64,000 nt of DNA from an uncultured virus (IMG/VR IMGVR_UViG_3300036398_005010) (taxonomy: Duplodnaviria; Heunggongvirae; Uroviricota; Caudoviricetes). How positions within the stretch are numbered: the stretch's first letter is position 1; every line of letters starts with the position of its first letter. Position numbers and translations under genes: made by a program. Shown here one piece after another: positions 36,038 to 51,760 of the stretch. The DNA lies in IMG/VR virus record IMGVR_UViG_3300036398_005010; one strand, written 5' to 3'. The notes under the pieces were generated by a model. The model ran no database searches. It saw only the letters and a program-made list of their open reading frames with translations, and was not told the DNA's origin.

Positions 36038-36729
36038 CAGAGCTCGTATTCGTAGTCGTTGGTTTCGATGATGCGCTCGGAGTGCGAGAGCGAGATGCGG
36101 ACAACGGAGGGATCCTCCTCGTCGGCTGTGATGACGATCTTTCCGTAGCCGCCTTCATTGATCTCGAAGCCGGGGTTGCGTCCGTAGGCGAGATCCCAGC
36201 CGAGGTCGCTGATCAGCTTCTCCGCTGTGACGTTGGCGGGCTCGCCTGCTGTGACCCAGCCGACACCTGGCTGCCATTCGCCGGGTTGATGGGTTCGTCC
36301 CTGGGCGACCTCGTCAGGCAAGGGCTGATAATCTGAGATCTCAACCGAGAACGGAACGACGCAATCGGAGGTCTTGTTGCCGCCGTAGAAAATGGATTCG
36401 ACGTTGCCGCTGTCGCCGGATCCGTCGTACTCGATCTCGATATACTGGAGCTCGGGGTTCTGGGCGCGGAGGTAAAGGAAGAGTGTCCGCAGTCCAGCTG
36501 CTGCATCATCAGCCGCAGAGGCGACCTTGGATATATGGTTGCGGTAGATCGTGTCGAAGTCCATGCTTGCGATGGAAGCGGAGGCTTGAGCGTCGGAAGT
36601 CATTGAAGGAAAAGAAGGAAACGAAGGCAGACGTGTGCACTGCTGAGCGGGCACACTCAGAGCGCATAGATCAAAAGGACAACTGGTTGAGTTGCTCCAT
36701 CGCTTGGGGAATCGTGAGCTGAGCCATGG
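35633..36729. repeat. 55-bp direct repeat (35633-35687 / 36675-36729, 51/55 identical) flanking a two-gene cassette
   Basis: Direct alignment. Confidence 0.9.
36037..36603 (-). CDS. DUF6878-like protein
   Basis: EIEYDGSGDSG.VE...PGFEINEGGYG. Confidence 0.75.
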   Translation of the reverse strand: MTSDAQASASIASMDFDTIYRNHISKVASAADDAAAGLRTLFLYLRAQNPELQYIEIEYDGSGDSGNVESIFYGGNKTSDCVVPFSVEISDYQPLPDEVAQGRTHQPGEWQPGVGWVTAGEPANVTAEKLISDLGWDLAYGRNPGFEINEGGYGKIVITADEEDPSVVRISLSHSERIIETNDYEYEL

Positions 36730-36731
36730 TG

Positions 36732-36902
36732 TCAATCCGGGAGTGTTCCCTGTTCGAGGTCATCGATGCAGCGGCCGGTGGCCCGCACTGCGTTGGCGAT
36801 GTTGTCGAGGGTGTCGGAGTTCCACTCCTTGCCGTCGAGCAGGCTCTGGATGAGATCCATGGCGCGCTCGTCGCTGATGTAGCTGTGGGTGGACTTGGGC
36901 AT
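36732..36902 (-). CDS. 56-aa hypothetical protein
   Basis: Hand translation MPKSTHSY...LLDGKEWNSDTLDNIANAVR... Confidence 0.65.
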   Translation of the reverse strand: MPKSTHSYISDERAMDLIQSLLDGKEWNSDTLDNIANAVRATGRCIDDLEQGTLPD

Positions 36903-36905
36903 GGA

Positions 36906-37289
36906 TCAGATGGCATAGATCAACTGGTCGTCGCCCAGGTACAGCTCGATCTCGCCCTGCTTGTGACAGAGCTCAGTGAGCTTCTGGCCGAACTCTTTGT
37001 CCCAGTCGCCGTCCCAGAAGCCGGAGCCGCAGCGGTTGCGGGTGAGGATCCAGTCGTGGGCCATACGGGCCTGCTCGTCCCCCTGGGTGGGGTCGATCAT
37101 GGTGAGGCGATGCTCAACTGGATCGAAGCCGAGCTCAAAAGCCTGGAACCAGAAGGCGGCCCATTCAGCCCAGAGCTTGGCGCGCAGCTCCGGGCTGAGC
37201 TTGGCGTCGCCCTTGTCGGCGTAGAGAATGTCGTCAGGTGCGATCCAGAGCAGGGCCTGGATGGCGTGTTGGAAGGGGTCGTTGGACAT
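36906..37289 (-). CDS. conserved phage hypothetical protein
   Basis: ALLW...AHDWILTRNRCGSGFWDG...LYLGDD motif. Confidence 0.75.
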   Translation of the reverse strand: MSNDPFQHAIQALLWIAPDDILYADKGDAKLSPELRAKLWAEWAAFWFQAFELGFDPVEHRLTMIDPTQGDEQARMAHDWILTRNRCGSGFWDGDWDKEFGQKLTELCHKQGEIELYLGDDQLIYAI

Positions 37290-37315
37290 GTGCGGATTGG
37301 AGAGAATGGTGAGAG

Positions 37316-37714
37316 CTACTCGTCTGCATCGGGATCCTCGCCGGCGTCAATTCCTGCCTCCTTGTCAGGTACCCATAGCCAGGCCTGAACGTAGGCGCCT
37401 TCGTCGCAGCCTTTGCTGACGATGGCGTCGTCGTCGACCTCTAGCTCGCCCTCCTTGGAAATAGTGAGGCGTTGAGCTGCCTCGATGTAGCGGCGGTCAT
37501 CGTCCGTCGAGTTGGCCGCCACCCAGGCCTTCTGATAGGAAGCGAAGGTCAGCTCCTTGATGAGAGCGTTGCACAGGTGCCGTGCCATCACCGCAGGGGA
37601 GATGTTCCGCGGGATGGGAAAGTAGAGCAGCTGCTCTTCAATGAAACTCCTGAGATGAAATAGTGGACTGGGGGTGGGGAGCTTGGAGTGCGCGAGGGGA
37701 TCGGGTTGATTCAT
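37316..37714 (-). CDS. hypothetical protein
   Basis: EGELEVDDDAIVSKG..GAYVQAWLWV motif. Confidence 0.7.
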   Translation of the reverse strand: MNQPDPLAHSKLPTPSPLFHLRSFIEEQLLYFPIPRNISPAVMARHLCNALIKELTFASYQKAWVAANSTDDDRRYIEAAQRLTISKEGELEVDDDAIVSKGCDEGAYVQAWLWVPDKEAGIDAGEDPDADE

Positions 37715-37787
37715 GAGGGGAGGGATGATAATGATGACTGCTACGGCAGCTACCTGTGAAGCCACCCAAGAACCTGAGCGGCTACCG

Positions 37788-37985
37788 ATGAAACCACCGA
37801 AGATCCTGAGCAGGCATGACCTGGATGACGACCGCTGCATTGAGCAGCTGGAGGACGAGCGAGGCCGGACCTACTACCGGGCGTGCACGGATGGCGGCGC
37901 AATCTGCAGGTCCTGCGAGGACTTGTGGATGGCGCAGATGTACGCCGATCAGATGTGCCTCAAGCGGCAGCTGAAGCCGGAGTGA
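37788..37985 (+). CDS. small hypothetical protein
   Basis: IEQLED..GRTYYRAC..G.ICRSCEDLWMA; isolated plus-strand gene. Confidence 0.55.
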   Translation: MKPPKILSRHDLDDDRCIEQLEDERGRTYYRACTDGGAICRSCEDLWMAQMYADQMCLKRQLKPE

Positions 37986-39333
37986 GCTGCGGCAGCAGGG
38001 CCTGCTCGGTGATGATGCGGGAGAAGATCTTGGCCTCGGCGTGCTCGTGCTGGGCGCTGCCGTCATCGCCGTAGTCGTGGGCCGCCTCGTGGACGATGAC
38101 GCGGATAGTGGCCTCGAGGCTGTCGAGGTTCTTGCGGGCGATGTTGATGCGGAAGGTCTCGGACTTCTGATCGAAGGAGTGGGTGCCGAGGATGTTGTCG
38201 TCGCGGAAGTCGACGACCCGCAGGCGCTGGGCAATGGGGGCGAGGCCCAGGGCTGCGGCCGAGGGCTCGATCAGGGAGAGTGCCAACTGCAGGTTGTGGA
38301 GCTCAAGCGGGTTGAGCTCGAGGCTGGTGTAGGTCTCAACCACGTCGCCGCGGCGCTCAGCGCGCAGCCTCTCCAGCGAGAGCTCAGAGTGCTCCCGGAA
38401 GAAGTTGCACACCTCGGGTGTGGTGATCAGGCCGATCTTGCCGAGATGACCGGCGTCGTTGGCCTCGGCCTGGTTCTTGACCGGAACGGCGTGCTCGCCA
38501 TAGGCATCACGCCAGGCCTGGGCGACGCGTTCCAGGTGCTGCTCTGGGCAGTAGCGATTGCCGACGCCTTTGGCGTCTTCGCAGCCGGACTGCAGGTGAA
38601 CCAGGAGCCGGGCCGGAGAGATACCATCTCGGCAGAGGGCGCTGATCCAGGCGTGGCCGATGTGATAGTCGAAATCGAAGGAGTTGACCATCCGCCTGTC
38701 GCGGTCGGTGCGGACGCCGCCGGTCAGGTTGTAGCCGGCGGCCAGGTTGTCTCGGGTCTCGACATGGATGCCTTTGACGTAGATGCGGCCGCGCTGCTGC
38801 TCATCGGTGAGGATCAAGCCCTCCGAGGTGTCGATGGCCGCCAGCCCCTGTTGCAGGTCAATGAAGCGGAGCTGGAAGTCGGCCCACTCGGCGGGTGTGA
38901 TCTCGATGCGAACCGAGAAGCATTGGTGCGTGCTGGGCGTGGAGCGCCGGCGCGTGTTGACGGTGAGGACTGGCTGCCCAGGGAATGCCTTGGACTCGGC
39001 CAGGGTGCAGTCCCAGTTCTCGTCGTGGTTGACGATCTGAAGCTTGCGGCCGGCGCGAACCAGGGCCAGGGCGCCCAGTTTCAGACCTTCTCCGAAGTGG
39101 CCGCGGGCGTCTGAGTCGTCAGCCTTGGAGGTGACGCCCATCAGCCAGACGGAGCGGTCGAGCTTGACGCCGAAGTTGGCGACGATGAGCATGCCGTCCG
39201 TCTGGTTGTAGTTGATGTGCATGGGGTGGCCCTTGTCGCGGGCGTCCAGGGCGTTCTGGATGGCCTCGCGAACGCCCTCCCAGACGCCCCAGTCGGAGAC
39301 GTACTGGTCGGAGATGGTGAGCTGGAATTTCAT
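37960..39333 (-). CDS. GHKL (HATPase_c) ATPase with C-terminal HExxH motif
   Basis: REAIQNALDA, G.TSK...RGHFGEGLKLG; HEAAH. Confidence 0.8.
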   Translation of the reverse strand: MKFQLTISDQYVSDWGVWEGVREAIQNALDARDKGHPMHINYNQTDGMLIVANFGVKLDRSVWLMGVTSKADDSDARGHFGEGLKLGALALVRAGRKLQIVNHDENWDCTLAESKAFPGQPVLTVNTRRRSTPSTHQCFSVRIEITPAEWADFQLRFIDLQQGLAAIDTSEGLILTDEQQRGRIYVKGIHVETRDNLAAGYNLTGGVRTDRDRRMVNSFDFDYHIGHAWISALCRDGISPARLLVHLQSGCEDAKGVGNRYCPEQHLERVAQAWRDAYGEHAVPVKNQAEANDAGHLGKIGLITTPEVCNFFREHSELSLERLRAERRGDVVETYTSLELNPLELHNLQLALSLIEPSAAALGLAPIAQRLRVVDFRDDNILGTHSFDQKSETFRINIARKNLDSLEATIRVIVHEAAHDYGDDGSAQHEHAEAKIFSRIITEQALLPQLTPASAAA

Positions 39334-39367
39334 GGGGCGAGAGATGAGAGGACGAAGACGGAAAAGA

Positions 39368-40069
39368 TCAGGCGGCGACGCGGTAGTTGCGTTCCTGCCT
39401 GCGGCGGAGGTAGTCATTGATTCGCAGGGCCCTGGCGGCCTTTCGCTGCGACTCGGCGTCTCCGGTCGTGGCCCCGTCGAGCCACTCCTGGATGGTCTCC
39501 ATGGAGATCGATTCTTCGGCGATGCCGCGTTCGTCTTTGATTTGCCGGCAGGCGAAGAGGTGGTCGACGTAGCAGGCCAGGACGCAGCCGACCTGGTTGT
39601 GATCCCAGTCAGAGACGCGGGGCCAGGAGCAGAGGCTGTTTGGGTAGTGACTGATGAAGCCGCTGCGGCTGGTGAACCATTCGTTGATTTTGTCGTCGAG
39701 TCGCTTGCCGCGTACGACGCGAAGCATTACCGCCAGGGACGAGCGATCGAGCTTGGCGAACAGTCTGTCGGCGGTGAAGTTGTATTCGCGAGGGGATTGC
39801 ATTTCCTCGTAGTCGAGGGGGATGCCGATCACCCGAGCGAGAGCGTCGACATAGGCCTTGGCGTATTTGTTACGGACGTAGCCATAGTTGACGTTCGAGT
39901 AGAACATCTCATAGAGATTTTCATTGAGGATTTCACCAGAGTCGTCGATGAACATTTGCTCTTCGGCAAAGTCGATGGCTTGGTCGTGAGAAGACTCGTA
40001 AAAGCCGGCGAATGGCACCAAGGCTGAGAAGCTGGTGCGCTTGCATTCACCGGCGCATGGGTCATTCAT
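39368..40069 (-). CDS. conserved phage hypothetical protein
   Basis: PFAGFYES...SPREYNFTADR...FTSRSGFISHY. Confidence 0.75.
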   Translation of the reverse strand: MNDPCAGECKRTSFSALVPFAGFYESSHDQAIDFAEEQMFIDDSGEILNENLYEMFYSNVNYGYVRNKYAKAYVDALARVIGIPLDYEEMQSPREYNFTADRLFAKLDRSSLAVMLRVVRGKRLDDKINEWFTSRSGFISHYPNSLCSWPRVSDWDHNQVGCVLACYVDHLFACRQIKDERGIAEESISMETIQEWLDGATTGDAESQRKAARALRINDYLRRRQERNYRVAA

Positions 40070-40094
40070 GGGGTGAGAGAGGAGAGGATGAAGG

Positions 40095-40781
40095 TCAGGA
40101 GGATTTGCTGCAAGCCTTATGGACGGAACCGATAGACACCTTGAAGGCGGCCGAAATTCGCCTGTAGGTTTCACCGGCTGCGCGCATGGCTCGCATCTGC
40201 TCGCGCATTTCTTCGGTGACCCGGAAGTGTGGGTGGCTGGAGCTACGGCGTGCGCCCTTGAGCAGCTTCTCTGGCTCCATTCCGGCGCGGTCGATATGGC
40301 GCCATGAGCGATTGGCGCAGATGTCGAATGCGCAGGTAATGGTGACGCCGAAGCGTCGGCCGATTTCTGCATAGGTCAACCCTTGTAGCCTGAGGCCAAG
40401 GATTTGAATGATTGCGTCATCGGACAAGACGGAATTGCCGTGTTCTTGCCCTTTGGGAGCAATGCTTCTTCCTGCCTTGATGCGGTCGTCGGTGTTCTCC
40501 TGGCAGGTGCCCAGGTAGAGGTGGCCCGGGTTGACGCACGAAGTGTTGTGGCACTTGTGTAGTACATGCAGGGATGTGTCGCTGATGGGCCCATTGCTGA
40601 GCTCCCAGCTGACGCGATGGGCTCTGGCCGGCCTGGACGCTCGGACTCCGATCGACCCATAGCCGCGGCGGTCCTTGCTGGCTGTCCAGATCCAGCAGGG
40701 AGTGTCGACGTACGGCCCGACGGGGCCGCACTTGTCGACTTTCTCCCAGAACCGCTCCTCGAGAGGTCGCTTTGCTGGCAT
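40095..40781 (-). CDS. HNH homing endonuclease with C-terminal HTH repeats
   Basis: ERFWEKVDK..CWIWT...AHRVSW...VLHKCHN..CVNPGHL.LGT..EN. Confidence 0.9.
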   Translation of the reverse strand: MPAKRPLEERFWEKVDKCGPVGPYVDTPCWIWTASKDRRGYGSIGVRASRPARAHRVSWELSNGPISDTSLHVLHKCHNTSCVNPGHLYLGTCQENTDDRIKAGRSIAPKGQEHGNSVLSDDAIIQILGLRLQGLTYAEIGRRFGVTITCAFDICANRSWRHIDRAGMEPEKLLKGARRSSSHPHFRVTEEMREQMRAMRAAGETYRRISAAFKVSIGSVHKACSKSS

Positions 40782-40784
40782 GGG

Positions 40785-41858
40785 TCAGAGAGCTATGGCC
40801 AGCTCGCGGGCGCGCTGGATAACGCTTTTGCCGGTACCGAAGAGGGCCGAGTGAGTACGGCGTAGGCCGGCACCGGCTGTCTTGGTGGAAGACTCCACCT
40901 GGGTGACAGCGTTGAACGCAGCCCAGGCGGTATTGGCGACACCGGGAATGTCGTGGCCAAGGCCGTAGTTCCAGGCTTCCTTGAGTTGAGCCCAGCGGCG
41001 TGGCATGTCCTCCACCGACGCTGGACGGGTGTCACCGTCGGGGAGTTGAACCGGGGGCAGGGAGTAGACGCGCTCGAGGTAATGGCGGAAGCCGTCGTAA
41101 GTGACGGCCTTGGATTGCAGCATCTGCATCTCAGTGATGACAGTTGGCAGCTGCTGACGGCCCAGGTCGATCTGCCCGATGAGTGAGTCGATCTGGCCGA
41201 TCTCGAAGGTGTTGTGACGGATCCGCATGTGCTTGTTGTTGCGGTCGGCGTCCGTCATGGCGAAGCCGAGTGTGTTCGCGCAGACAACTCTGACCGGGGT
41301 CAGCATGGCGCCGAGGGCGGTCTTGCCGTCGTGGCCGAGATAGCCAACGAAGTTGAGGTTGACGGTGTCGCCAGGCAGGACGTCTTTGGTGGCGCCGCGG
41401 ATCTTGGCAGTGAAGGCCACCTTGGCGCCGCCGCGCAGGACGACGACGGTGTCCATGTCGACCTCCTCGCGCAGGGCAGAGGCGAAGTCGAGCAGGCGCT
41501 GGTTGGGGATGACCTGGTAGCCAGGGCTGGCGGTGCCGAGGATCTTGCGCTCATCGGGCCGCCAGATGGCAACGCGGTTCTCGCGCATGGAGATCAGCCG
41601 TTCTTCGAGGGCCTCCTGGATATGAGCGGTGCGCTCTTCGGGGGAGGAGAACTCGCGGTCGGCTGCCTGGGCGACAGCATCGAGCAGGTCCTGGGACTTG
41701 ATGTCGCCGGCCCAGAGCTGCAGTTGGTCGACCGGGAAGAGGGCGCCGGCGCGGCGGAAGGCTTCCTCCGCGGGGAGCGTGCCTTCGAGGACGGTGCCAA
41801 GGCCGTGCCAGGCGCGTTCGCCGTTGAGCATGACGCCGGAGGTGAATTCGTGAGCCAT
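40785..41858 (-). CDS. DUF932-family phage/plasmid protein
   Basis: MAHE...AWHGLG, Y.VIPN, GHDG...TPVRVVCANTL, TAWAAFNAVT. Confidence 0.9.
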   Translation of the reverse strand: MAHEFTSGVMLNGERAWHGLGTVLEGTLPAEEAFRRAGALFPVDQLQLWAGDIKSQDLLDAVAQAADREFSSPEERTAHIQEALEERLISMRENRVAIWRPDERKILGTASPGYQVIPNQRLLDFASALREEVDMDTVVVLRGGAKVAFTAKIRGATKDVLPGDTVNLNFVGYLGHDGKTALGAMLTPVRVVCANTLGFAMTDADRNNKHMRIRHNTFEIGQIDSLIGQIDLGRQQLPTVITEMQMLQSKAVTYDGFRHYLERVYSLPPVQLPDGDTRPASVEDMPRRWAQLKEAWNYGLGHDIPGVANTAWAAFNAVTQVESSTKTAGAGLRRTHSALFGTGKSVIQRARELAIAL

Positions 41859-41902
41859 GGAGAGAAGAGGGTTGAGAGGACGGGGTTGGAAGGTGTTAAA
41901 GG

Positions 41903-42448
41903 TCAGCCGAGTTCGTCGCTGAAGCGCGCATAGAAGTGCTTCTCGAACTCGGCTTCTGAGATGCCGAGGGCGCCGAGCATGGCGTCGCTGACCAGCAAGC
42001 GGCGCAGGGCCTGCTTGCCGTCGTGGCCCAGGTCTTTGATGGACTGGAGCCGTTCGCCGGTGAACGATGCCGTCATCGGCTTGAGCACGGTGTAGACCAG
42101 TTCCTGGCTGGCCAGCAGCATGCGGATGTCGGCGTCGGCGCGGGTGGCGATTGCCAGGTCGAGCGGGTTGTTGATCTTGGTGTGCGGCTCGACTGTGGTC
42201 TTGATCCCGTGGACCACGGCATCAAGCAGGAAGCTGACCAGGTGGAGCAGCTGCGGCATGATCACGCCGCCGCCATCGAGCACGATCTGCTCGATGACGA
42301 CGGTCAGATCCAGGAGGCCGCAGCTGGGATCGGAGACCGGCAGGGTGGGCAGGGTCGTGCTGCGCGGCGGCAGCCCGCCCTCCTTGCGGAGGTTGCGGAT
42401 GCGCTCGAGCAGCTGGGACGGAGAGACGCTGTCGGGGATGTCACTCAT
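41903..42448 (-). CDS. hypothetical protein
   Basis: ATG at 42448. Confidence 0.65.
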   Translation of the reverse strand: MSDIPDSVSPSQLLERIRNLRKEGGLPPRSTTLPTLPVSDPSCGLLDLTVVIEQIVLDGGGVIMPQLLHLVSFLLDAVVHGIKTTVEPHTKINNPLDLAIATRADADIRMLLASQELVYTVLKPMTASFTGERLQSIKDLGHDGKQALRRLLVSDAMLGALGISEAEFEKHFYARFSDELG

Positions 42449-43010
42449 GAGGTTCTGGAAGAGGCGGTTGCCCGAAGGCTCGCCGGAGGTGGTTGACGGC
42501 GATCTCCAGGTCGTCGATCGAGGGGCCGATAGCCGTGGCTCGCACCTCCGGCTGCTCGATCCCGTCGGAGTCGAGGGGTATAACCCGGAAGAACGTAGCC
42601 GAATGTCCGACTTTCGTCTGCAGCTTGACAGCCGTGTCTGGCATGTCAAGCGCGGTGAGGGCGCCGAGCAGGGAGCGGACAGACCAGGGGGTCTGCTGCT
42701 CCTGGGTGGCCGGGTCGGTGGAGCCCCGGCAGGGCAGGCGCAGGACGACCGTGCTGTTGATCGGGGTCAGCAGCACCAGGTCGAGGTACGGTCTGGAGCC
42801 GTACTTAGATCCTTCGCCGTGGAAGGTGATGTCGGCGCCGACCGGGGCGCCGATGATGGCGGGACATTCGGGCCCGGGATTGTCGGCGGTCTCGCCGTAG
42901 ATGTAGAGGGTGCCGCTGGCGGAGATGCCGACGGTGGTGACGTCGGGCTCAGGTGTGGCGGGAACGACCCAGGCGGGGAGAGCCGGGTCGAGGGTTGCGA
43001 GATTGCTCAT
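42441..43010 (-). CDS. hypothetical protein
   Basis: ATG 24 nt after leader element. Confidence 0.7.
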   Translation of the reverse strand: MSNLATLDPALPAWVVPATPEPDVTTVGISASGTLYIYGETADNPGPECPAIIGAPVGADITFHGEGSKYGSRPYLDLVLLTPINSTVVLRLPCRGSTDPATQEQQTPWSVRSLLGALTALDMPDTAVKLQTKVGHSATFFRVIPLDSDGIEQPEVRATAIGPSIDDLEIAVNHLRRAFGQPPLPEPHE

Positions 43011-43061
43011 CGGAGACTGAAAGGAACGCAAGTGTGTGCACTGCTGAGAGTGCTCAACTGA

Positions 43062-43235
43062 TCAGCCAAGGGTTTTCTCGGGCTGCCAATCGAGGGGCAG
43101 CTGGATCTGCTGGGGGAGGTTGTGGATGATGCGCAGCAGGGATCGCCGCTCACGCAGCAGGCGTTCCCTGGTGTGTTCGTCGTTGATGCGCGGCAGGATG
43201 CTGTTGATCGTGTCGACACGTTCTTGGTGGGACAT
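43062..43235 (-). CDS. 57-aa hypothetical protein (MSHQERVDTIN...QQIQLPLDW...)
   Basis: Hand translation. Confidence 0.65.
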   Translation of the reverse strand: MSHQERVDTINSILPRINDEHTRERLLRERRSLLRIIHNLPQQIQLPLDWQPEKTLG

Positions 43236-43236
43236 T

Positions 43237-43581
43237 TCAGTCGGCTCTCAGGAGATTGGAATCTGGCTGAATTCCGCTATCAAGGAGACCGCGGTTAAGT
43301 AGCTCCTCGACAATGTCACGGTAGACAGGATATAGATCGTCGATCTGAGCACTGGCGAGTCTGAGCCACTCTTCTTCGGCGGCCATTTGCGCCATTTCAC
43401 CCTGAAAGCAGGGTGGATCGGGAATCTCGATTCTCTCGAACTGCCTCTCAAGGAATCTTTTGACATTGATGAGATGCTCATCACTCATGCTACAAATAGG
43501 CAGATGTCGCCCGTCTCTGGTGGTCCAGGCCGGGCCCTCTTGGTCTGAGTCGATCGCGTCGACGCGGTCTTGGTGGGACAT
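43237..43581 (-). CDS. hypothetical protein, lower GC, N-terminus duplicated from the downstream gene
   Basis: WTTRDG..I..MSDEHLIN motif; begins MSHQDRVDAID. Confidence 0.7.
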   Translation of the reverse strand: MSHQDRVDAIDSDQEGPAWTTRDGRHLPICSMSDEHLINVKRFLERQFERIEIPDPPCFQGEMAQMAAEEEWLRLASAQIDDLYPVYRDIVEELLNRGLLDSGIQPDSNLLRAD

Positions 43582-44213: not shown

Positions 44214-44427
44214 GTTGAGATGGAGAGACAGAGAGGAGACGACTGGAGCCAGCCCCGCACCTGCTGCCCCTGGTCGCCAGGGAGGAGCAGCGCGTCGCTG
44301 ATGCGGGGCATGGAGGGATCGCACAACTGGTTGAGTGCGAGGCGGCCGCGGCCGGACAGGGGCGACAGGAGGGCCTGCCCGGCCGGCGTTGTGACGTGAA
44401 GGAGGTCAGGCCGCGGGGCCTGGCCGC

Positions 44428-45102
44428 TCACTTGATGGACCAGTTGGTGCGCTTGTCGAGGCGGGCGCCGGCGACGGGGTCACCGGCTTTGAGCTGGGCC
44501 TTGATGGCGGCCTTGTCGGGCACGCCGCTGCAGGCCAGCTCGTACTCGGAGGGGGCGATCTCATAGAGGTCGCGCAGGGTTTCGGTGATCACGGCGGTGA
44601 TCTGGTCAGCGGCCTCGGCGTGGCCGGGCTGCAGCTTGAGCTTCACCTCGAAGCGCTTGAGGGAGTCGGGCACCAGCTCGGGGTCGACCTCGACGGCCTC
44701 GCTGGGGCGGGAGGCGACGGTGAACTCGGGCAGAGGAAAATTCTTCTGCCCGGGGTTGAGGGCGGTGAGGCAGCGGGTGAGGTAGTCGAGCAGGCGCTCG
44801 GCGGCGCGCTCTTCAGCGGCGGCCTTCTCGAGGCGGTCGGCTGCCACCTGGCGGAGGTGGGCCGCCTTGGCGAGCAGGGACTCGTGCACATGGCAGATGG
44901 CGTTCGCCTTGCGGTGCAAGACCGCCTGGTTGTCGGCGGCCTTCTCGAGGAGCTCAGTGATCAGGGCCTGGGCCTGCTCCTGCTGCTCGGGGTCATCGGA
45001 GTTGGCGAGGTCCAGGGCTAGGGCCAGCTGTCCGTCGACTTCCTGGACCTCGAGGGTGAGTTCGTACAAGGAGGTCTTGGGCTTGGAGGGGGTCAGGGTC
45101 AT
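44428..45102 (-). CDS. siphovirus Gp157-like protein
   Basis: SLYELT...K...I...S.AVEVD...PDKAAIKAQLKAG..V.GARL. Confidence 0.8.
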   Translation of the reverse strand: MTLTPSKPKTSLYELTLEVQEVDGQLALALDLANSDDPEQQEQAQALITELLEKAADNQAVLHRKANAICHVHESLLAKAAHLRQVAADRLEKAAAEERAAERLLDYLTRCLTALNPGQKNFPLPEFTVASRPSEAVEVDPELVPDSLKRFEVKLKLQPGHAEAADQITAVITETLRDLYEIAPSEYELACSGVPDKAAIKAQLKAGDPVAGARLDKRTNWSIK

Positions 45103-45295
45103 GGAGGGAGCGATGGATTTGCTGGATGTAGGAATCGGCCAGGTCCACCAAGGCCTCGATCCGGGCCAAGGCGTCGTGCTCGTAGAGCGGTGAACTTGGA
45201 CGGATGTCGGCCCGCGCCCGCTTGGCTGCCTGGTGGGCAGCGTTGCGCAGGCGGTAAAGCGGCCCGGCCGGGGCGGACCTGGAGATACTTGGCAT
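44993..45295 (-). CDS. hypothetical protein
   Basis: ATG at 45295. Confidence 0.45.
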   Translation of the reverse strand: MPSISRSAPAGPLYRLRNAAHQAAKRARADIRPSSPLYEHDALARIEALVDLADSYIQQIHRSLHDPDPLQAQDLLVRTHPRGPGSRRTAGPSPGPRQLR

Positions 45296-45340
45296 GGGAG
45301 TGGAGCCCCGGCACGTAGATGCGTGCCAGGGCAACCAGTA

Positions 45341-45727
45341 TCACGCAGCCACGGGCTCCGGCTTGGCGCCGTTGCTGCTGACCACGGGAATCGCAGCGGC
45401 AGCCTTGGCTGCCTTGGCGGCCTCCCGCAGGGCCTGCTTGCGCAGGTGGGCGGCGTAGATGGACTCGGCGGAGAGGCTGTGCACCTCGCCGTCGACGCCG
45501 GCGAAGGTCTTGCCGTGGAAGATCTCGCCGCCGGGGGCGATGTACTGGTCGGTGGGGTCCTCCTCGCCGAGGATCTCGAGCAGGTGCTCGGATTTGAAGC
45601 TGGTCCGCAGCGTGGTTTCCCGCTGGGCCTGGCCGGCCTTGCGGGCGGTGATCAGGCCAACCTCGAAGGTGGACCAGTTCTGACCGGAGAAGAAGCGGAG
45701 CTCGAGGGGACCGAGTGAGAGTTGCAT
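45341..45727 (-). CDS. hypothetical protein
   Basis: ATG 46 nt after leader element. Confidence 0.7.
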   Translation of the reverse strand: MQLSLGPLELRFFSGQNWSTFEVGLITARKAGQAQRETTLRTSFKSEHLLEILGEEDPTDQYIAPGGEIFHGKTFAGVDGEVHSLSAESIYAAHLRKQALREAAKAAKAAAAIPVVSSNGAKPEPVAA

Positions 45728-45835
45728 GAGAGTGGAGACAGAGAGGGTGAACAGTGGGCCTCTCAACAGGCGATGTGCACTGCTGAGAGGCCTCAATCAA
45801 CAGACCTAGAATCCAGAAATCGAGACAGGGCAACC

Positions 45836-46336
45836 ATGCTGCGGCAGTTCCGGGACAACTTCATGAGCGCGGCACGGGGCGGCGAGCAGTGGGTGGCTGC
45901 GGAAGCCGCCAAGCGAGCGGCCGCGGACAAGGCTGCTGGCATGGCAGCCAGCCAGGAGTACATGATGAGCAGGCCGGCCGAGACGGTGGCCGGACGAGTT
46001 GCCAGCCAGTTCGGCAAAGGCGAGAAGTGGCGGGATCAGATGGTGAGGAACCTGAGCGATCCGGGCAGAAGGTCCAGGATTGCGGCTGCTCTTGCCCCGC
46101 AGCTCAATCGGGGGCCCTTCCAGTTGACGAAACGCGGGTTTGGGGAGGCCATGAACCAGGGGATCGCCGAGAACAAGTACATCCGCCGGGGGCTGCTGCC
46201 GACCGCGATTGGCGGTGGCGGCCTGATGGCCGGCGCTGCTGTGACGACTGGCGCTCAGAACCTGATGGCTCTGATGCAGTACATGCAGGCCGGCGATCAG
46301 CAGCAGGAGCGGGTGGAACAGAGCCCGCTGGCCTGA
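45836..46336 (+). CDS. hypothetical protein (putative virion-internal type)
   Basis: After CCTAGAATC; Gly/Ala/Gln-rich C-terminus. Confidence 0.7.
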   Translation: MLRQFRDNFMSAARGGEQWVAAEAAKRAAADKAAGMAASQEYMMSRPAETVAGRVASQFGKGEKWRDQMVRNLSDPGRRSRIAAALAPQLNRGPFQLTKRGFGEAMNQGIAENKYIRRGLLPTAIGGGGLMAGAAVTTGAQNLMALMQYMQAGDQQQERVEQSPLA

Positions 46337-46340
46337 GCGG

Positions 46341-46571
46341 ATGGATAGCCGCTTCGCGGGCGATGAGGTGTCCCTGGGCCTCCTGATGGAGGAGGAGCTG
46401 ATTCGTGCTGCGCAGTTGGAGATGATCGCGCTGTTCACGCTCCAGCAGGAGCAGGAGCGGATGCGCGAGATCATGCGTCTGCGCAGCGACAAGCTGACAG
46501 GGACGTCGGCTGCGGGGTTAATGCGTGGGGCGTGGGTGAGTGGGGCAGAGGGAGTGGAGGGCTATGCCTAA
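46341..46571 (+). CDS. hypothetical protein, N-terminus MDSRFAGD
   Basis: Coupled to 45836. Confidence 0.6.
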   Translation: MDSRFAGDEVSLGLLMEEELIRAAQLEMIALFTLQQEQERMREIMRLRSDKLTGTSAAGLMRGAWVSGAEGVEGYA

Positions 46572-46834
46572 AAGGCGTCATAGGCGGAGGGGATTGGGTT
46601 GTCGCAGTGAGAGCACCGCAGGGTGGCGTCCTCCCAGTTGATGGTGGCTGCCACCACGCACCAGCCGTCGGTGCCGGTGGTGGTGGCAATGAGCTTGCGT
46701 TCGCTCTTGCAGCAGTCGCTGCAGAGTGGCTGGCCGTCGTTGGTGATGGCGTACCTGGGGTAAAGCCCAGGGAAACTGATCGGCTCGCGGACCAGGGAAT
46801 CCGCCAGCCGGAGGGAGCGGGATTGAGTGGTCAT
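46568..46834 (-). CDS. small Zn-binding phage protein
   Basis: FPGLYP..DG..LC.DC...NWED..L.C.HC...I.SAY. Confidence 0.75.
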   Translation of the reverse strand: MTTQSRSLRLADSLVREPISFPGLYPRYAITNDGQPLCSDCCKSERKLIATTTGTDGWCVVAATINWEDATLRCSHCDNPIPSAYDAF

Positions 46835-47472
46835 GCCTCTTGGTGGGCGATGGATGCCAGCCAGGGGATGACGTCGAGCTTGCTGTCGTAGAAGTGGTTT
46901 GCGGCCTCCGTGCCGAGAAGCAGGAGCCCGGCGAGGTGGGAACCATGCAGCTTCTCGAGGATCTCGCCTACAGGTCCCGCCTGTTGGATCGCCCATCCTG
47001 CGAGGCAGTGGGTGGTTCCGCATTTGCTGTGCCAGTTGGTCATGTCCAGGTGGTCAGGCTGATCCAGGACCTGCTGGGCGACTGCCTTGAGTCGCTCCTG
47101 TGAGTCGGAGGCGATAGGCAGTCCTACGGCGCCGTTCAGGTTGGCGCCGCCCAGGTTGGCGTCGTTCAGGCTGGCGCCGCGCAGGTTGGCGTCGCGCAGG
47201 TTGGCGTCGCGCAGGTCGGCGCCGCCCAGGTTGGCGTCGTTCAGGCTGGCGCCGCGCAGGTTGGCGCCGTTCAGGTAGGCGTCGCGCAGGTCGGCGCCGC
47301 GCAGGTTGGCGTCGCGCAGGTTGGCGTCGCGCAGGTCGGCGCCGCCCAGGTTGGCGTCGTTCAGGCTGGCGCCGCGCAGGTCGGCGCCGCGCAGGTTGGC
47401 GCGCTTACCGCCGGGATGGGTCCTCAGCCAGAGGGCGTGAAGGCGCAGGGTTTCAGGAAGATCGACTGGCAT
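46831..47472 (-). CDS. pentapeptide repeat protein
   Basis: A(N/D/S)L(R/G/N)(G/D) repeats, 15-bp periodicity ~47130-47400; C-terminal MTNWH..CGTTHCLAGWA. Confidence 0.95.
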   Translation of the reverse strand: MPVDLPETLRLHALWLRTHPGGKRANLRGADLRGASLNDANLGGADLRDANLRDANLRGADLRDAYLNGANLRGASLNDANLGGADLRDANLRDANLRGASLNDANLGGANLNGAVGLPIASDSQERLKAVAQQVLDQPDHLDMTNWHSKCGTTHCLAGWAIQQAGPVGEILEKLHGSHLAGLLLLGTEAANHFYDSKLDVIPWLASIAHQEA

Positions 47473-47495
47473 GACAAGAGGGGTGGGTGGGGTGG

Positions 47496-47723
47496 TCAGA
47501 GGGCACCGGCCTCCAGGGCAGCGAGCAGCTCGCGCTCCTGGTCGTCGGCGATGGCCGTCAGGACGGCGACCTGTGATGGGGTGAGGTCCCGCTCCCGGAT
47601 GGTAACGAAGGTCGTCCCCGGGAACAGGGGCCGCAGCTGCTGCACCAGGCGCTCCACCTGGCGGGCGGAGGCGCGGACGCAGATGCCCGGGTCTGCTGGG
47701 GATTGGTAGATGTCGAGGAACAT
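47496..47723 (-). CDS. hypothetical protein
   Basis: TGATG coupling. Confidence 0.6.
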   Translation of the reverse strand: MFLDIYQSPADPGICVRASARQVERLVQQLRPLFPGTTFVTIRERDLTPSQVAVLTAIADDQERELLAALEAGAL

Positions 47724-48040
47724 CAGGAGTGAGCGAGAGGACGGTTGGCGGCCATCTCGAGGAGGACGGCCTTGGGGAGATTGCGGCGGGTGCCGACGAT
47801 CTCCTGGAGCTGCCGACGCGTGAGCGCCGAGAGGTCTTCCGCAGAGACGGAGAGTTCGCCTGCTGTGGCAGGCGGGGGTAGAGGTGGATCAGCCGCCGGC
47901 GCGAGCAGCCGGGGCTGGGGAGTGGTCTTGGGAGCGAGGATGAGTTCCCTGGCGATGAAGATCGCCACGGGGGTGAGCCTGCGGGCGACAGCCAGGGTGA
48001 CGGCTGCTGCCCACAGGCAGGCGTTCAGGAAGAGGCGCAT
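47723..48040 (-). CDS. membrane-anchored protein with SAP-like C-terminus
   Basis: Hydrophobic N-terminus; LSALTRRQLQEIVG...K..L. Confidence 0.55.
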   Translation of the reverse strand: MRLFLNACLWAAAVTLAVARRLTPVAIFIARELILAPKTTPQPRLLAPAADPPLPPPATAGELSVSAEDLSALTRRQLQEIVGTRRNLPKAVLLEMAANRPLAHS

Positions 48041-48216
48041 CAGCGTCGGCAGGGGGGACGGAGGACGGACCAGGCAGCGCACTGGGGCACCGGATTACCG
48101 GATGCCCTGGCTGCCAGGTCCTTGATGTCGTTGCCGGTAGCCGGGACAAGGAAGCCGGCGGCAACGAGGATCACCAGCAGCTGGGCTGTGGTGATGGTGC
48201 GTTGGATGGTTTGCAT
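48040..48216 (-). CDS. small membrane/secreted protein
   Basis: Hydrophobic N-terminus, coupled. Confidence 0.55.
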   Translation of the reverse strand: MQTIQRTITTAQLLVILVAAGFLVPATGNDIKDLAARASGNPVPQCAAWSVLRPPCRR

Positions 48217-48275
48217 GAGAGGAAGCCCCACCCGGGCGGGCGGGGCAGAGAGGACGGACGGAGATGGAGCGCGAC

Positions 48276-48977
48276 TCAGAAGGGCACTTCCTCGTCGGTG
48301 GGCTCGCCGTAGCCGGCGGCAACCGGGGCGCTTGCCGCAGCTTGCACCGGCTGGGCCGGCGCGTCAAGCCGCGGCAGGGGCTTGAAGTGGCTGAGCATCC
48401 ACTCGGAGCGAGGTTCTCCGATGCGGAAGAGCTTCTCGCCGTTGTCGCCCGTGAGGGCGGTCTCGTAGACGGGGGTGCCGTCTTCGAGGTGGCCGACCAG
48501 GGCGCCGCGGACTTGCGCCCGGGGCGAGAAACCACGCTCCGTGAGTTCGTTGCGCGTGCAGTGCTCGGGGAGCCGGGGCTTTTCATAGGCGCCGATGCGG
48601 ACCAGGCGCACGTCGGAGCCGCTTTCGTAGTGGTCACGGATGCGCTCAGCGAGTTCGCCGATCGCGGTGAACCACTTGCGGGCTCCGTAAACGCGCTGGC
48701 CGGTGCGCCTGTCCAGGGAGCTGTACTGGGTGGCGATCTCGAGGATTAGGGTCTTGCCGTCGCGGCTCCAGCGCATGGTGTCCCGATCGAAGGACGGGCA
48801 GTCGCGCTGGATCCAGACGGTTTGCTCCAGCTGGTCGCGGCGCTCGGGCTCCTGGGCCTCGGAGGCCTGGGCTTCGAGCTGCTGCTCCAGGTCGTTGTTG
48901 CGACCTTGGGCGACAGCCAGGGCTGCCTGCAGCTCGGCGATGCGGGCTTCCAGCTGGGTCTTGGTGATGGTGGGCAT
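48276..48977 (-). CDS. SSB-like OB-fold protein with N-terminal coiled coil and inserted module
   Basis: KWFTAIGELAERI....G..VRIGAY and acidic tail DEEVPF. Confidence 0.6.
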   Translation of the reverse strand: MPTITKTQLEARIAELQAALAVAQGRNNDLEQQLEAQASEAQEPERRDQLEQTVWIQRDCPSFDRDTMRWSRDGKTLILEIATQYSSLDRRTGQRVYGARKWFTAIGELAERIRDHYESGSDVRLVRIGAYEKPRLPEHCTRNELTERGFSPRAQVRGALVGHLEDGTPVYETALTGDNGEKLFRIGEPRSEWMLSHFKPLPRLDAPAQPVQAAASAPVAAGYGEPTDEEVPF

Positions 48978-49121
48978 TGAGAGGACCCGGTGGTGTTCCG
49001 GGGTGAGAAGGACGTTGAGCCGCACAACAGGGCGTGTGCACTGCTGAGCGAGCTCACGAAGAAAAGCCCCACCCCAGGGATCCGGGGTGGGGCGTGAAGG
49101 GGGTGCCAGATGTGGCGTTGG

Positions 49122-49571
49122 TCAGAAAGGTACTGGGTCGCCTGGGGTGGACGATGGACGCTTGAGATGCGAATAGCCGGGGCCCATGTGGTGATAGCCG
49201 TCCCAGTCGGAATCGGATCCAGGGCGAAGGTAATACTGCCTGAGATTTCCATAGGGCTCAGGCAGTCCGTTAGACCAAGTCTGAAGGGACGGAATGTAGG
49301 GAGCTCGGCTTTCGGGAGAGTAGCGAGCGGCGAGCTGGTCGCGCTCGACCATTTCCTGCCAGGCGAGGGCGGCAGCCTGGGGACTGTCCCAGACCACGGG
49401 GACTAGGTTCTCGTCGAGATAGCCGCTTGGGGTGTTAGGCGGCAGGGACTTTGCTCGCCTGAGATGAGCGTTTAAGATGGCATCGACCTGGTCTTGACGC
49501 AGGGGCTGCCTAATAGGAAGATGTGGGGATCTTCCTGGCAACTGAAGGAGGTATTGGGGGTTTCTCAGCAT
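49122..49571 (-). CDS. hypothetical cassette gene, lower GC, ends VPF
   Basis: Bounded by two 53-bp repeats; CCTAGCCT upstream. Confidence 0.65.
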   Translation of the reverse strand: MLRNPQYLLQLPGRSPHLPIRQPLRQDQVDAILNAHLRRAKSLPPNTPSGYLDENLVPVVWDSPQAAALAWQEMVERDQLAARYSPESRAPYIPSLQTWSNGLPEPYGNLRQYYLRPGSDSDWDGYHHMGPGYSHLKRPSSTPGDPVPF

Positions 49572-49657
49572 TTGAATGAGTCGACTGTCTACAGGCTAGG
49601 CAGAAGCCCCACCCCAGGGATCCGGGGCGGGGCGTGAAGGGGGTGCCAGATGTGGCA

Positions 49658-49936
49658 CTAGGCCGCGATGGTCTCCAGCTGACGCCGGAGATCGCGGATG
49701 AGGGGACGGTTGGCGCCAATGATGGCGGTGGCCTGGCTGAGGCAGGCCTGGTCGACCGGGCTGATGCCGCGGCCGTCCTGGAGGTGCTCCAGGGCCTCGA
49801 GGACCCCGGAGCGAACGAGCTCCAGGGAGTAGTTGATCTGGCCGCTGAGAACGCGGCCGTCTGAGGCGGTGCGCACGTTGGCGCGGGCCAGCAGGCGGAG
49901 CTGCTGGGACATGTCGTAGATGGCAGTTTCGCTCAT
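49658..49936 (-). CDS. hypothetical protein
   Basis: Leader element upstream, repeat downstream. Confidence 0.7.
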   Translation of the reverse strand: MSETAIYDMSQQLRLLARANVRTASDGRVLSGQINYSLELVRSGVLEALEHLQDGRGISPVDQACLSQATAIIGANRPLIRDLRRQLETIAA

Positions 49937-50071
49937 CGGAGACAGGGGCGCTGAGCGCCCGGTGAGAGGACGGAGCCGTAGGCAGGTGCTGTGCACTGCT
50001 GAGATGGCTCACTGAAAAAGCCCCACCCCAGGGATCCGGGGCGAGGCGGGAAGGGGGTGCCAGATGTGGCA

Positions 50072-50218
50072 CTAGAAAGGGATTGCGGACTCGAGCCGCT
50101 CATTGATCTGGCGGTCGAGGTCCAGCGCGAGGGCTTGTGCCTCCTCGTGGGCCTGGCGATCGCCGGCCTCGAGGTTGGCATGGGCGAGCCGGCGGGCAAG
50201 GGCCAGCTCGGAGAACAT
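50072..50218 (-). CDS. 48-aa hypothetical protein ending IPF
   Basis: MFSELALARR...ESAIPF. Confidence 0.65.
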   Translation of the reverse strand: MFSELALARRLAHANLEAGDRQAHEEAQALALDLDRQINERLESAIPF

Positions 50219-50301
50219 GGTGTGGAGATCCACGGGACAAGAGCCCGGCTGCCGCCGGGGAGAGAGGACGGGGAAGGGGGTGCCAGATGTGGCACCAGTG
50301 C

Positions 50302-50448
50302 TCACCGGTGGATGAGCGGGTAGAGGGGGTCGAAGAACAGACCCCAGTCGCCGTGGGCCATACCCAGGCGGATGGTGAAGCCGAGCAGGCAGCAGCCCGC
50401 CAGGTAGACGGCGGGGCGGCGCTCGGCGAAGGAGACGATGCTGCGCAT
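50302..50448 (-). CDS. 48-aa membrane peptide
   Basis: MRSIVSF...AVYLAGCCLLGFTIRLG. Confidence 0.6.
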   Translation of the reverse strand: MRSIVSFAERRPAVYLAGCCLLGFTIRLGMAHGDWGLFFDPLYPLIHR

Positions 50449-50576
50449 CGGAGTAGCCCGGCTGCCGCCGGGGCGAAGGGTCGTGTGAGCCGGAGTCAGG
50501 TGCTGTGCACTGCTGAGGAGGCTCACGAGAAGAGCCCCGCACGGATCGCTCCGGCGGGGCAGAAGGAGAGGAAGAG

Positions 50577-50942
50577 TCAGACCTTGGCGATGGTTCCATT
50601 GGAGAACCGGTAGCGGGTCATCTCGGCGTTGCGGGCATAGCCGCGCGCCTCGAACTCGTGGCCTTCGGCCATTGTGAGGACGATCGACGCGGCGGTACCG
50701 CGCCGGTTGAACTGGATGTCCTCCTTGAGTGGAGGAAAGCCGGGAAACCGGCGGTAGTGCGTCTTGTGAGGTTGGCCGGTGCCGCACTTGCCGACGGCGG
50801 AGCCCACCTTGAAGACAAGGCGGTTGCCGATGAGGTAGGAGATCCCACCGGCGACGCGGACTTCCTGCGCACCGGCAGGGATGCTGATAGCGGGCACCCC
50901 CGAGACCTGGAAGGTGCGGGGAGTGGAGATCGTGATAGCCAT
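50577..50942 (-). CDS. hypothetical protein, first gene of the early array
   Basis: ATG 16 nt after leader element; followed by terminator-like hairpin 50534-50560. Confidence 0.7.
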   Translation of the reverse strand: MAITISTPRTFQVSGVPAISIPAGAQEVRVAGGISYLIGNRLVFKVGSAVGKCGTGQPHKTHYRRFPGFPPLKEDIQFNRRGTAASIVLTMAEGHEFEARGYARNAEMTRYRFSNGTIAKV

Positions 50943-50979
50943 GAAACGAAGCAGCGCGTGTGCACTGCTGAGGAGGTTC

Positions 50980-51760
50980 ATTGGTGGATGATGTACTGTG
51001 GATTGATCTCAATCGCAAGCGATAGCGAGTGATCAAACCGTACGCCCCCGCTGACGCGAACGCGAGGAGTGTAGGGCGTTATGCGTCGCGTGGATATGAG
51101 GCGTGATGCTATTGATGTTAGGGGTGAAAGCGGTTGCGGCGCAGGGGTTGTGGCTTGTGTGCGCGTATGCTGCGCGTGAGGGTAGGGTATAAGGAACTAG
51201 GGAAAAGATAGGGGTTGTAGCGTGGGATTATATCGCGATGAATAGGGGCGCGTGTCGCGGATTATCGCGAACAATCGCGTGGTGTTGAGGAGTGAGTGCG
51301 CTTGAGCGGCGGCCGCGGCCGATGATCATCGGCTGTTGAGCAGCTGCTGCTGCAGCGTCGCTGATGTTGCGCGCGTGATTACACTTGCTGCGCTCGTGAT
51401 TACGCTTGCTGCGCGTGTCGCTGCTGCTGCTTCTGCTCGCGTGTTAAACAATCGTCGCTGAAGATTGCTGCTGCTCTCGCTTGCTGCTATCGCATCTCGC
51501 GCTCGCTTCGCTCTTACATCGCGGCGCATCCCCTTCAGTCTCCAATTCTTTTTTTGTTTGCCCGCCTTCCAAGCGCGTAGGGGGTATTTGACGACTGCCG
51601 CGCGCCGCAAAAAATTTTGCCGGTTATATAGGGGCCGTTTGCTTCGGATCTTTGATTCATGGGGCGAAAACGCCCATCCACGTGCATGAAAGCCCTGGAA
51701 ATCGGCGCCGATAGACTGATCTGACAGCAAAACCAGCGCGGGTTCGGCCTCGCCACGCAG
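50980..51760. other. largely non-coding strand-switch region; candidate genome end / packaging site
   Basis: Divergence point of gene orientation; strong dinucleotide bias, palindromes at 51310-51321 and 51318-51333, 21-bp tandem repeat ~51372-51417, A/T tracts. Confidence 0.5.

Follow-up and report, generated by a model that had tools for sequence, protein, structure and literature searches.

Here we consider a 64,000-nucleotide (nt) stretch of DNA from an uncultured virus (IMG/VR record IMGVR_UViG_3300036398_005010), hereafter called the window, in which a 14-nt sequence, CTCAGCAGTGCACA (the 14-mer), recurs in front of early genes. The window is that of an S-EIV1-like cyanophage: the closest isolate match of its terminase is that of Synechococcus phage S-EIVl, at 50% identity, and its G+C content is 64%. 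It encodes NblA, a DUF3288 protein, a pentapeptide-repeat protein, ThyX, a dNMP kinase and a VapE-type primase-helicase, together with SSB, a Gam-like protein, HNH endonucleases and the large terminase. Between about 5.9 kb and 51 kb the genes are carried by the minus strand, and from 51.76 kb onward by the plus strand; all seven copies of the 14-mer fall within the first 14.4 kb of the minus-strand block, adjoining a 0.8-kb gene-free divergent region. The leaders are rich in pyrimidine, with no Shine-Dalgarno-like letters before the start codons of the window. The S-EIV1-like phages form a cyanophage lineage that is widespread in fresh and marine waters; to our knowledge, few of its genes and none of its regulation have been characterized. 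The results described below establish that the 14-mer belongs to a real, strongly selected and lineage-specific cis module that defines early-gene cassettes.

An exact search placed the seven copies, all on the minus strand, at 36634, 43035, 45774, 49035, 49990, 50504 and 50959. In the same order, the first plausible ATG follows the core at 30, 24, 46, 57, 53, 55 and 16 nt, and the open reading frames (ORFs) behind the copies encode 188, 189, 128, 233, 92, 48 and 121 amino acids (aa). An earlier note on this DNA had described an invariant 14-mer at these seven sites, in one orientation and 16-57 nt 5′ of minus-strand starts, and the exact search confirmed all of this. No match was found in 100 dinucleotide-preserving shuffles (0 expected). 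When up to three mismatches were allowed, 11 matches (the seven exact copies and four with three mismatches) were found against 9.7 expected; the mismatch search therefore added background only, and the window has no degenerate copies of the 14-mer. Likewise, an nhmmer profile built from 34 copies returned exactly these seven in the window. The modules and the cassettes that they head are as follows, where z compares the stability of the hairpin with that of flank-shuffled controls and the letters A to E denote clusters of cassette proteins.

50925..50986, minus strand: module copy 1 (14-mer 50959-50972); the 3′ arm overlaps the ATG at 50942; hairpin z -2.9
50470..50531, minus strand: module copy 2 (14-mer 50504-50517); outer stem GUGAGCC/GGCUCAC; z -3.1
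49956..50017, minus strand: module copy 3 (14-mer 49990-50003); z -1.6, marginal
49001..49062, minus strand: module copy 4 (14-mer 49035-49048); z -4.2
45740..45801, minus strand: module copy 5 (14-mer 45774-45787); 13-bp hairpin; no upstream terminator; z -5.0
43001..43062, minus strand: module copy 6 (14-mer 43035-43048); no significant hairpin, z +0.4
36600..36661, minus strand: module copy 7 (14-mer 36634-36647); no significant hairpin, z -1.0
49066..49093, minus strand: intrinsic-terminator-like hairpin of 12 bp; its T-tail enters copy 4; stem end to GTGCA 24 nt
50020..50047, minus strand: intrinsic-terminator-like hairpin of 12 bp; its T-tail enters copy 3; stem end to GTGCA 23 nt
50534..50560, minus strand: GC-rich hairpin, bulged and with few T in its tail, ahead of copy 2; seen by eye and missed by the terminator scan
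50577..50942, minus strand: cassette gene 1, 121 aa, no family; ORF after copy 1
50302..50448, minus strand: cassette gene, 48 aa, cluster E; ORF after copy 2
49658..49936, minus strand: cassette gene, 92 aa, cluster B; orthologues in the relatives G002 and G007
48276..48977, minus strand: cassette gene, 233 aa, cluster C; ORF after copy 4
45341..45727, minus strand: cassette gene, 128 aa, cluster A; of the early proteins, the one retained most widely (four of four high-GC lineages)
42441..43010, minus strand: cassette gene, 189 aa, cluster D; ORF after copy 6
36037..36603, minus strand: cassette gene, 188 aa; DUF6878 match in the C-terminal part
51227..51288, minus strand: boxes resembling sigma70 sites, TCAACA-16-GATAAT and a perfect TATAAT (51232-51227), located in the gene-free divergent region 255-290 nt before copy 1

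In line with the earlier note, in which no described family was recognized, the element matches none. Rfam 15, searched with the whole window, gave no match at gathering score, and seven weak matches (E 0.0035-3.9) were far under the cut-offs and did not recur at the copies. A literature search for the 14-mer, its complement and a 12-mer returned unrelated primers only, and a keyword search of the literature found no description of the element.

The conserved letters extend beyond the 14-mer itself. An alignment of 34 distinct copies, seven from the window and 27 from relatives, resolves a module of about 35 nt that consists, in order, of a T-rich run, a TG box, six variable nucleotides, the invariant 14-mer, two to four further nucleotides and YTG. 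The TG box (TTG or GTG) is at least 90% conserved; in the YTG, the T is kept in 94% of the copies and the G is invariant, so that T34 and G35 of the alignment form a pyrimidine-purine step 5-6 nt after the core. Relatives included, the distance from core to start codon varies from 2 to 58 nt. The upstream T-run and TG box, the fixed spacing to terminators and the lineage-specific variants, both described below, were missed in the earlier note, which had written most copies as TGAG-C-N3-CTCA around the core; this pattern is exact in four of the seven copies, one letter off in two, and carries an 8-nt gap at 36634.

A second feature of the module is its frequent association with terminators. In the early block, strong terminators (12-bp GC stems with T6-7 tails, between small genes) are each followed by a module, and this also holds for seven of the nine strong terminators in G010, a more distant relative. 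The spacing was examined in 51 copies, of which the window contributed 7, close relatives 29, G010 8 and G007 7 (three lineages in all), with a strict finder that accepts perfect stems only, several more bulged terminators being visible by eye. A perfect-stem terminator was found upstream of 17 of the 51 copies, and the distance from the stem end to GTGCA was 23 nt in 11 of them, 24 nt in four, 22 nt in one and 20 nt in one. The composite that characterizes the PeSL elements of T4-type phages, in which a conserved signal adjoins a terminator stem-loop in the gaps between small early ORFs, is found here too, with 15 of 17 spacings at 23-24 nt. The earlier note had placed three window copies directly after terminator-like hairpins; two of these were called by a separate terminator scan as 12-bp stems, and the third is a bulged hairpin read by eye only. 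Because the T-rich run is also present in copies that have no terminator, we consider it to be part of the module. Serial strong terminators of this kind imply that the downstream genes need either a restart of transcription or antitermination. We also noted that, in G010 (contig L275, 6464-6631), some 140 nt between one strong terminator and the next terminator contain no module and no clear ORF; this segment may be a remnant cassette or a small RNA.

How widely is the module distributed, and what has been kept during its evolution? An exact scan of IMG/VR with the 14-mer returned 86 stretches; 48 loci on single-match contigs were excluded from the set, and nine related contigs carry two to six exact copies each, in a single orientation and upstream of genes. 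Among at least 119 matching stretches in a metagenome scan, about a dozen family copies were recognized by eye, nearly all already in IMG/VR, and the remaining matches among those listed were single chance hits. The extended motif, in its 3-nt-linker form, gave only two single hits in 185,579 representative prokaryote genomes, both in non-cyanobacterial metagenome-assembled genomes, which we read as chance. The complete relative G002, which is 83,980 bp long and has terminal repeats, carries seven copies in the opening 12 kb of its early block, six with the identical 14-mer and one with a single changed letter. Between the window and G002, protein identity is 27-74% (35-60% for cassette proteins, 51-67% for replication proteins and 74% for the terminase), and the DNA can be aligned in patches only, at 67-81% identity, save for one 33-nt match. 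Because the 14 letters are kept perfectly at several orthologous joints despite this divergence of protein and DNA, the core must be under strong selection. Another record, G001, aligns to window positions 1-19601 and 19883-20000 (of 1-20000 queried), has no match to 34000-52000 or 50000-64000 and does not contain the motif; a megablast of the region against the phage collection gave no match.

In relatives whose terminase identity falls to 60-68%, the 14-mer is absent and an equal arrangement is found with a changed core. The G010 module reads T6-7, A(T/G)TGC, an N-rich spacer and CAACRGTGCAT, and stands after the seven terminators mentioned above and in two terminator-less copies; three of its cassettes have the ATG 2, 3 and 5 nt past the core, and in a fourth the ATG overlaps a core that is degenerate. 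The G007 module is CYGTGCATYTTT, with the core CYGTGCAT, and contig L141 carries an intermediate form, CTCAGCAGTGCAT. Orthologous cassettes that bear the module can be followed across these genomes: the window, G002 and G007 share clusters A to D, and G010 has cluster A in common with them. The signal of cassettes A to D is CAGCAGTGCAC in both the window and G002 and CYGTGCAT in G007; that of cassette A in G010 is CAACRGTGCAT. The core thus changes in concert within a genome, which argues for a lineage-specific reader rather than universal host machinery. Cassettes B and C stand in swapped order in the window and G002, and several cassettes are confined to one genome. S-EIVl itself (L096) has six copies, on the minus strand at 43012, 39528, 38809, 33602, 30513 and 25919, of a 28-nt element that forms a hairpin with a loop of the TGACAT type and lies 19-30 nt ahead of start codons; the stem of this hairpin varies by matched substitutions. 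In four of the six, CCAACTCA follows a few nucleotides after the element.

The earlier note had presented the element as a structured leader with paired flanks. Each copy was folded with its native flanks and compared with flank-shuffled controls, in 19 independent groups. Native flanks folded far better than the controls (mean z -2.6), and in 10 of the 19 groups no more than 0.5% of shuffles were as stable; in eight groups, which include window copies 43035 and 36634, the hairpin was not significant. Within the window, the hairpins of 50959, 50504, 49035 and 45774 beat their controls (0 of 200 shuffles as stable), and that of 49990 is marginal (8.5% of shuffles as stable), so that the pairing of the flanks holds for four of the seven copies, is marginal at 49990 and is absent at 43035 and 36634. 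The inner stem that the earlier note had assigned to all copies can be seen as GCAG/CUGY, with just four pairs, and RNAalifold over all copies likewise retained four pairs, at -1.66 kcal/mol. The hairpins fall into several registers: CUCAGCAG/CUGUUGAG with a variable outer stem, CCCCACUCAGCA/UGCUGGGUGGGG, a form with upstream GUGCACU/AGUGCAC and, for G010 and G007, short stems around the entire core. Stems are 4-14 bp and loops 9-16 nt long, and the TGCAY part of the core lies in or beside the loop in most registers. Cassettes A, B, C and E have a hairpin in most lineages, and cassette D has none.

Several observations suggest that, where a hairpin is present, its pairing has been maintained. 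With fixed columns, 70-73% of cells pair, against 32-47% with a slid partner, and the covariation score lies above nearly all shuffles (reached by 13 of 500 and 0 of 500). Orthologous hairpins keep pairing with different letters, as in GAGCC/GGCUC of the window and GGCCC/GGGC-CC of contig L023, and GCCCCA/UGGGG is common to the window and G010. A flank-swap control showed no overall effect (Wilcoxon p 0.23), and sense and antisense folds did not differ overall (p 0.60); among the 11 groups in which no more than 2% of shuffles were as stable, the sense fold was better in eight and worse in three (in one by 0.2 kcal/mol). The stems include coding-strand G-U pairs (25 GU and 8 GC at columns 19-36). 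Taken together, roughly half of the independent copies have a real hairpin, which orthologous cassettes preserve through matched changes; the hairpin is not found in all copies, its position shifts in register, and only the sequence core is invariant.

What, then, might the module do? We tentatively prefer, at rather less than even confidence, the reading that it is a lineage-specific, non-sigma70 start signal situated in terminator-promoter joints like the PeSLs of T4-type phages. The 14-mer would then be the invariant core of a strand-specific signal of about 35 nt that heads each early cassette, and the terminator and module would together form a stop-and-restart joint, as in PeSL cassettes. 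The reader might be host RNA polymerase redirected by an unrecognized phage factor, or an unrecognized phage polymerase. We speculate that the inverted repeat may expose the GC-rich core as a single-stranded loop and so ease opening, or may tune the strength of individual cassettes. A promoter-type reading is favoured by the serial terminators, each with a module at fixed spacing, and by the fixed spacing of the three blocks; by the concerted, lineage-specific change of the core, since private promoters and their readers behave in this way; by the strong selection on the core; and by the free distance to the start codon. It is further favoured by the divergent region, where the conserved sigma70-like promoter is found on the opposite (plus) strand only and TAnnnT is scarce on the early strand (two hexamers in G002 and one in G010). 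The PeSL terminator/promoter cassettes provide a precedent, and the differing order of cassettes B and C may likewise recall the behaviour of PeSL joints (PMC4122927).

Several results weigh against this reading. The absence of a sigma70 TAnnnT, claimed in the earlier note, was upheld for the aligned -14 to +34 region of every window copy and extends to columns 1-63 of all 34 aligned copies; the promoter scan, too, found no sigma70 promoter at the copies. A sigma70 geometry with TTG as the -35 box fails, because the ATG in three G010 cassettes lies 27-30 nt after the TTG, before the start point that such a box would set about 35 nt past its first base; with the ATG 2-5 nt from the core, that geometry is impossible there, and a start point would have to lie inside or just past the core. 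Searches for a reader were likewise negative: Pfam revealed no polymerase or sigma factor among 65 ORFs of the window and 73 of G002; sigma70 region 2 was matched in none of five related records (the control matched in 10 of 14); the T7-type polymerase profile PF00940 matched none of the five, a weak result since the control genomes were also without a match; and the two-barrel DxDGD motif was found in no large ORF. Moreover, the 5′ arm of the hairpin consists of the core and its upstream flank, so that if the hairpin acts as RNA, the core must be transcribed from further upstream, and an early signal that needs a phage factor requires that the factor be injected or made first. Sigma54-like, ECF-like and extended -10 readings were rejected by eye on the 34-copy alignment and the G010 copies, in which the spacing or key letters misfit.

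The main rival to a start signal is a transcribed leader RNA element, which, all forms taken together, we regard as a serious though less than probable possibility. A transcribed element would fit the presence, in the window, of TATAAT and GATAAT boxes some 255-290 nt before copy 1. In one form, unlikely when taken by itself, the module would lie in the early mRNA leader, where the RNA hairpin and core would be bound or cut by a phage-specific or host factor; variants would have it separate cistrons, provide a 5′ cap in the shape of the element hairpin with the terminator hairpin as the 3′ cap, or control the loading of ribosomes on genes without Shine-Dalgarno sites. The stability of native flanks, the orthologous hairpins kept with different letters, the coding-strand G-U pairs and the better sense fold in most of the strongest groups all argue for such an RNA, as does the company of other leader features, namely GTCCTCTC and a GNRA-type second hairpin (both described below). 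In addition, the 3′ arm or core may overlap the start codon, and neither promoter features nor a private polymerase would be required. However, the groups without a significant hairpin, the variable register and loop size, the four common pairs and the null flank-swap and sense-antisense comparisons speak against it; the strong terminators just upstream would stop most polymerases short of the module, and the T-run, TG box and fixed spacing have no obvious role in RNA. The other form, which we consider quite unlikely, is nut- or put-like antitermination, in which polymerase from a host-type promoter in the divergent region would be made termination-resistant at each module. Copy 1 is suitably placed downstream of the TATAAT/GATAAT boxes and ahead of the first terminator, each cassette consists of module, gene and terminator, and expression across serial strong terminators would be explained without a private polymerase, the first cassette being immediate-early and the others delayed. 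Yet in the known systems a single site suffices for each operon and is not repeated at every terminator, and a cassette that carries a terminator together with its own antidote lacks a clear rationale; besides, the hairpin is not universal, no conserved early-strand host-type promoter was seen in G002 or G010, and no NusG- or N-like protein was recognized in Pfam scans, although no search was aimed at N-like proteins.

More improbable still is a role of the module as a double-stranded DNA site at which a phage protein other than a polymerase would bind, be it an operator, a roadblock beside the terminator or a seam for cassette recombination. An unbroken run of 14 invariant base pairs matches a protein site in size, dyads are present in some copies (TGCAC-N10-GTGCA in G010 and GTGCACT/AGTGCAC in the L025 group), and the relatives differ in cassette order. 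However, the module is strictly oriented and always upstream of a gene, an operator would need a promoter, of which none was seen, and cassette exchange can arise as a by-product of any repeated sequence; Pfam scans of the window and G002 contained no integrase, HUH enzyme or recombinase. An integron attC or single-stranded DNA recombination site was rejected, since the scans of the window and G002 revealed no integrase or recombinase and the site lies at the 5′ end of the cassette (attC, at the 3′ end). Thus, among the three readings offered in the earlier note, the cis-acting RNA and the non-sigma70 hairpin promoter survive, and the single-stranded DNA recombination site is left unsupported, with no integrase or HUH enzyme in the protein scans; its broader description, a conserved, oriented, non-sigma70 cis element at the head of early-gene cassettes, is borne out.

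A start signal in terminator-promoter joints recalls several known systems. At the PeSL joints of T4-type phages, cassette order changes between relatives (PMC4122927). PeSLs and, on the start-signal reading, the module are both small composites of a terminator and a start signal repeated between small early ORFs that lack known function; both are conserved inside a phage group and differ slightly between groups, and the module may share with PeSLs a tie to the gain, loss and reordering of cassettes. In contrast, the promoter half of a PeSL is a host sigma70-type early promoter, whereas the module has no -10 hexamer, belongs to the S-EIV1-like group with a cyanobacterial host and often has its core enclosed by an extra inverted repeat. 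The module would be a new variation on the known theme of terminator-promoter joints. The private promoters of T7-type phages likewise have a long, contiguous, invariant block that keeps a single orientation ahead of genes, frequently follows terminators and varies along with the phage lineage, and a start inside or at the edge of the block would fit the ATG spacing of 2-5 nt in G010; they differ in that no single-subunit polymerase was detected in Pfam scans of the window or, by a profile search whose control was silent, in five related records.

The hairpin promoters of phage N4 are short hairpins with 3-nt loops, read by a virion RNA polymerase. They resemble the module in having a promoter-like motif around an inverted repeat with variable stem letters, at the head of terminator-separated early genes; here, however, stems and loops are longer, 8 of 19 groups have no significant hairpin, and there is no giant virion polymerase gene, the largest ORFs being 991 aa in the window and at most 1232 aa in relatives, none with DxDGD. 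The lambda nut site (boxA/boxB) occurs once per early operon, has a short boxB hairpin and acts with the arginine-rich N protein. Like HK022 put, it is an oriented leader hairpin element downstream of an early promoter and upstream of terminators, but here there are seven sites, and the sequence core rather than the structure is invariant, the geometry of the hairpin being variable. The SAS/ESAS of Cluster K mycobacteriophages, which stand immediately before the start codon and have a ribosome-binding-like core, are likewise invariant, about 13-14 nt long and confined to some of the genes, and inverted repeats flank certain copies; the module differs in lying 2-58 nt from the start and in having no Shine-Dalgarno-like letters. 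We can also envisage, as a rather doubtful proposal, a private promoter class of S-EIV1-like cyanophages without a -10 hexamer, whose core often sits in a hairpin loop, whose reader would lie outside current profiles (a new factor that redirects host polymerase, or a new small polymerase among the ORFs) and whose joints would also be seams of cassette exchange.

The module shares the early region with other features. The divergent region (window 50986-51760) is gene-free and contains a T-poor, GCAGCA-rich tract as well as AGCAAGYGTAATCACG, repeated twice. Three of its blocks are conserved in G002 and G010: AGTCTATCG, an A-run plus GA, and TTTTTGTTGCGGCGCGCG. The last of these reads, on the plus strand, as the sigma70-like promoter TTGACG-16-AAAAAT (51588-51615), which faces the plus-strand genes. 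Among leader features, all 13 occurrences of GTCCTCTC in the window are on the minus strand, most of them 1-25 nt ahead of a start codon (e.g., at 48986, 41881, 39353, 33746, 29587 and 1422); this sequence is a pyrimidine-rich, anti-Shine-Dalgarno-like motif. A second GC-rich hairpin (CCGG...CCGG), with a GNRA-type or similar loop of 4-6 nt, lies about 10-14 nt before the ATG in the leaders of 49035, 49990 and 50504 and in those of the relatives L023, L064, L071, L072 and L079, where its letters differ.

Some proteins of the window also deserve mention. The 128-aa cluster A protein has 12 database homologues at 52-97% identity, and its predicted fold (pLDDT 73.6) consists of four strands, a helix, three strands and a long helix; fold searches returned weak matches (Foldseek E values of 0.28 or more, VIA Z scores of no more than 5.2), in which PUR-alpha (Z 4.9) and MRP1/2-type nucleic-acid binders appeared among many unrelated rows, and no fold could be named. 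At the PDB sequence level, nothing was found for early proteins of 485, 334 and 357 aa. The 991-aa protein adjoining the divergent region (51761-54736, plus strand) has relatives of 665-1232 aa that are 27-44% identical in patches; it gave no informative match in Pfam, PHROG, PDB sequences or Atlas, and no lead to a family or fold, and its divergence would be typical of a fast-evolving structural or host-recognition protein. Small zinc-ribbon proteins of the NrdR/Ogr-Delta type, possibly phage transcription factors, are encoded in G002 (48293-48592 and 5741-6037) and the window (4519-5067, minus strand), one of those in G002 directly upstream of its last module copy. The NblA phycobilisome-degradation gene and a nucleotide set (a dCTP-deaminase-like protein, ThyX and the dNMP kinase) are found at 1902-2261 and 524-1153 on the plus strand and 7188-7901 and 10486-11082 on the minus strand. 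The large terminase (60745-63369, plus strand) has 874 aa, against 514 aa in G002; it aligns to that of S-EIVl in three pieces that cover 58% of the query, and its N-terminal part matches helicase-loader and primase PHROGs. Judged by these alignments, the long form may reflect an insertion or fusion, perhaps an intein.

That 14 letters have been kept perfectly while the neighbouring proteins drifted to 27-74% identity, and that from one lineage to another they change together in every cassette, marks a specific pair of reader and signal in this cyanophage lineage. The reader, once found, would represent either a new route by which a phage takes over cyanobacterial transcription or a new class of leader-RNA control in an organism that makes little use of Shine-Dalgarno sites. 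The module is also a practical marker of early genes and cassette borders in metagenomic cyanophage contigs.

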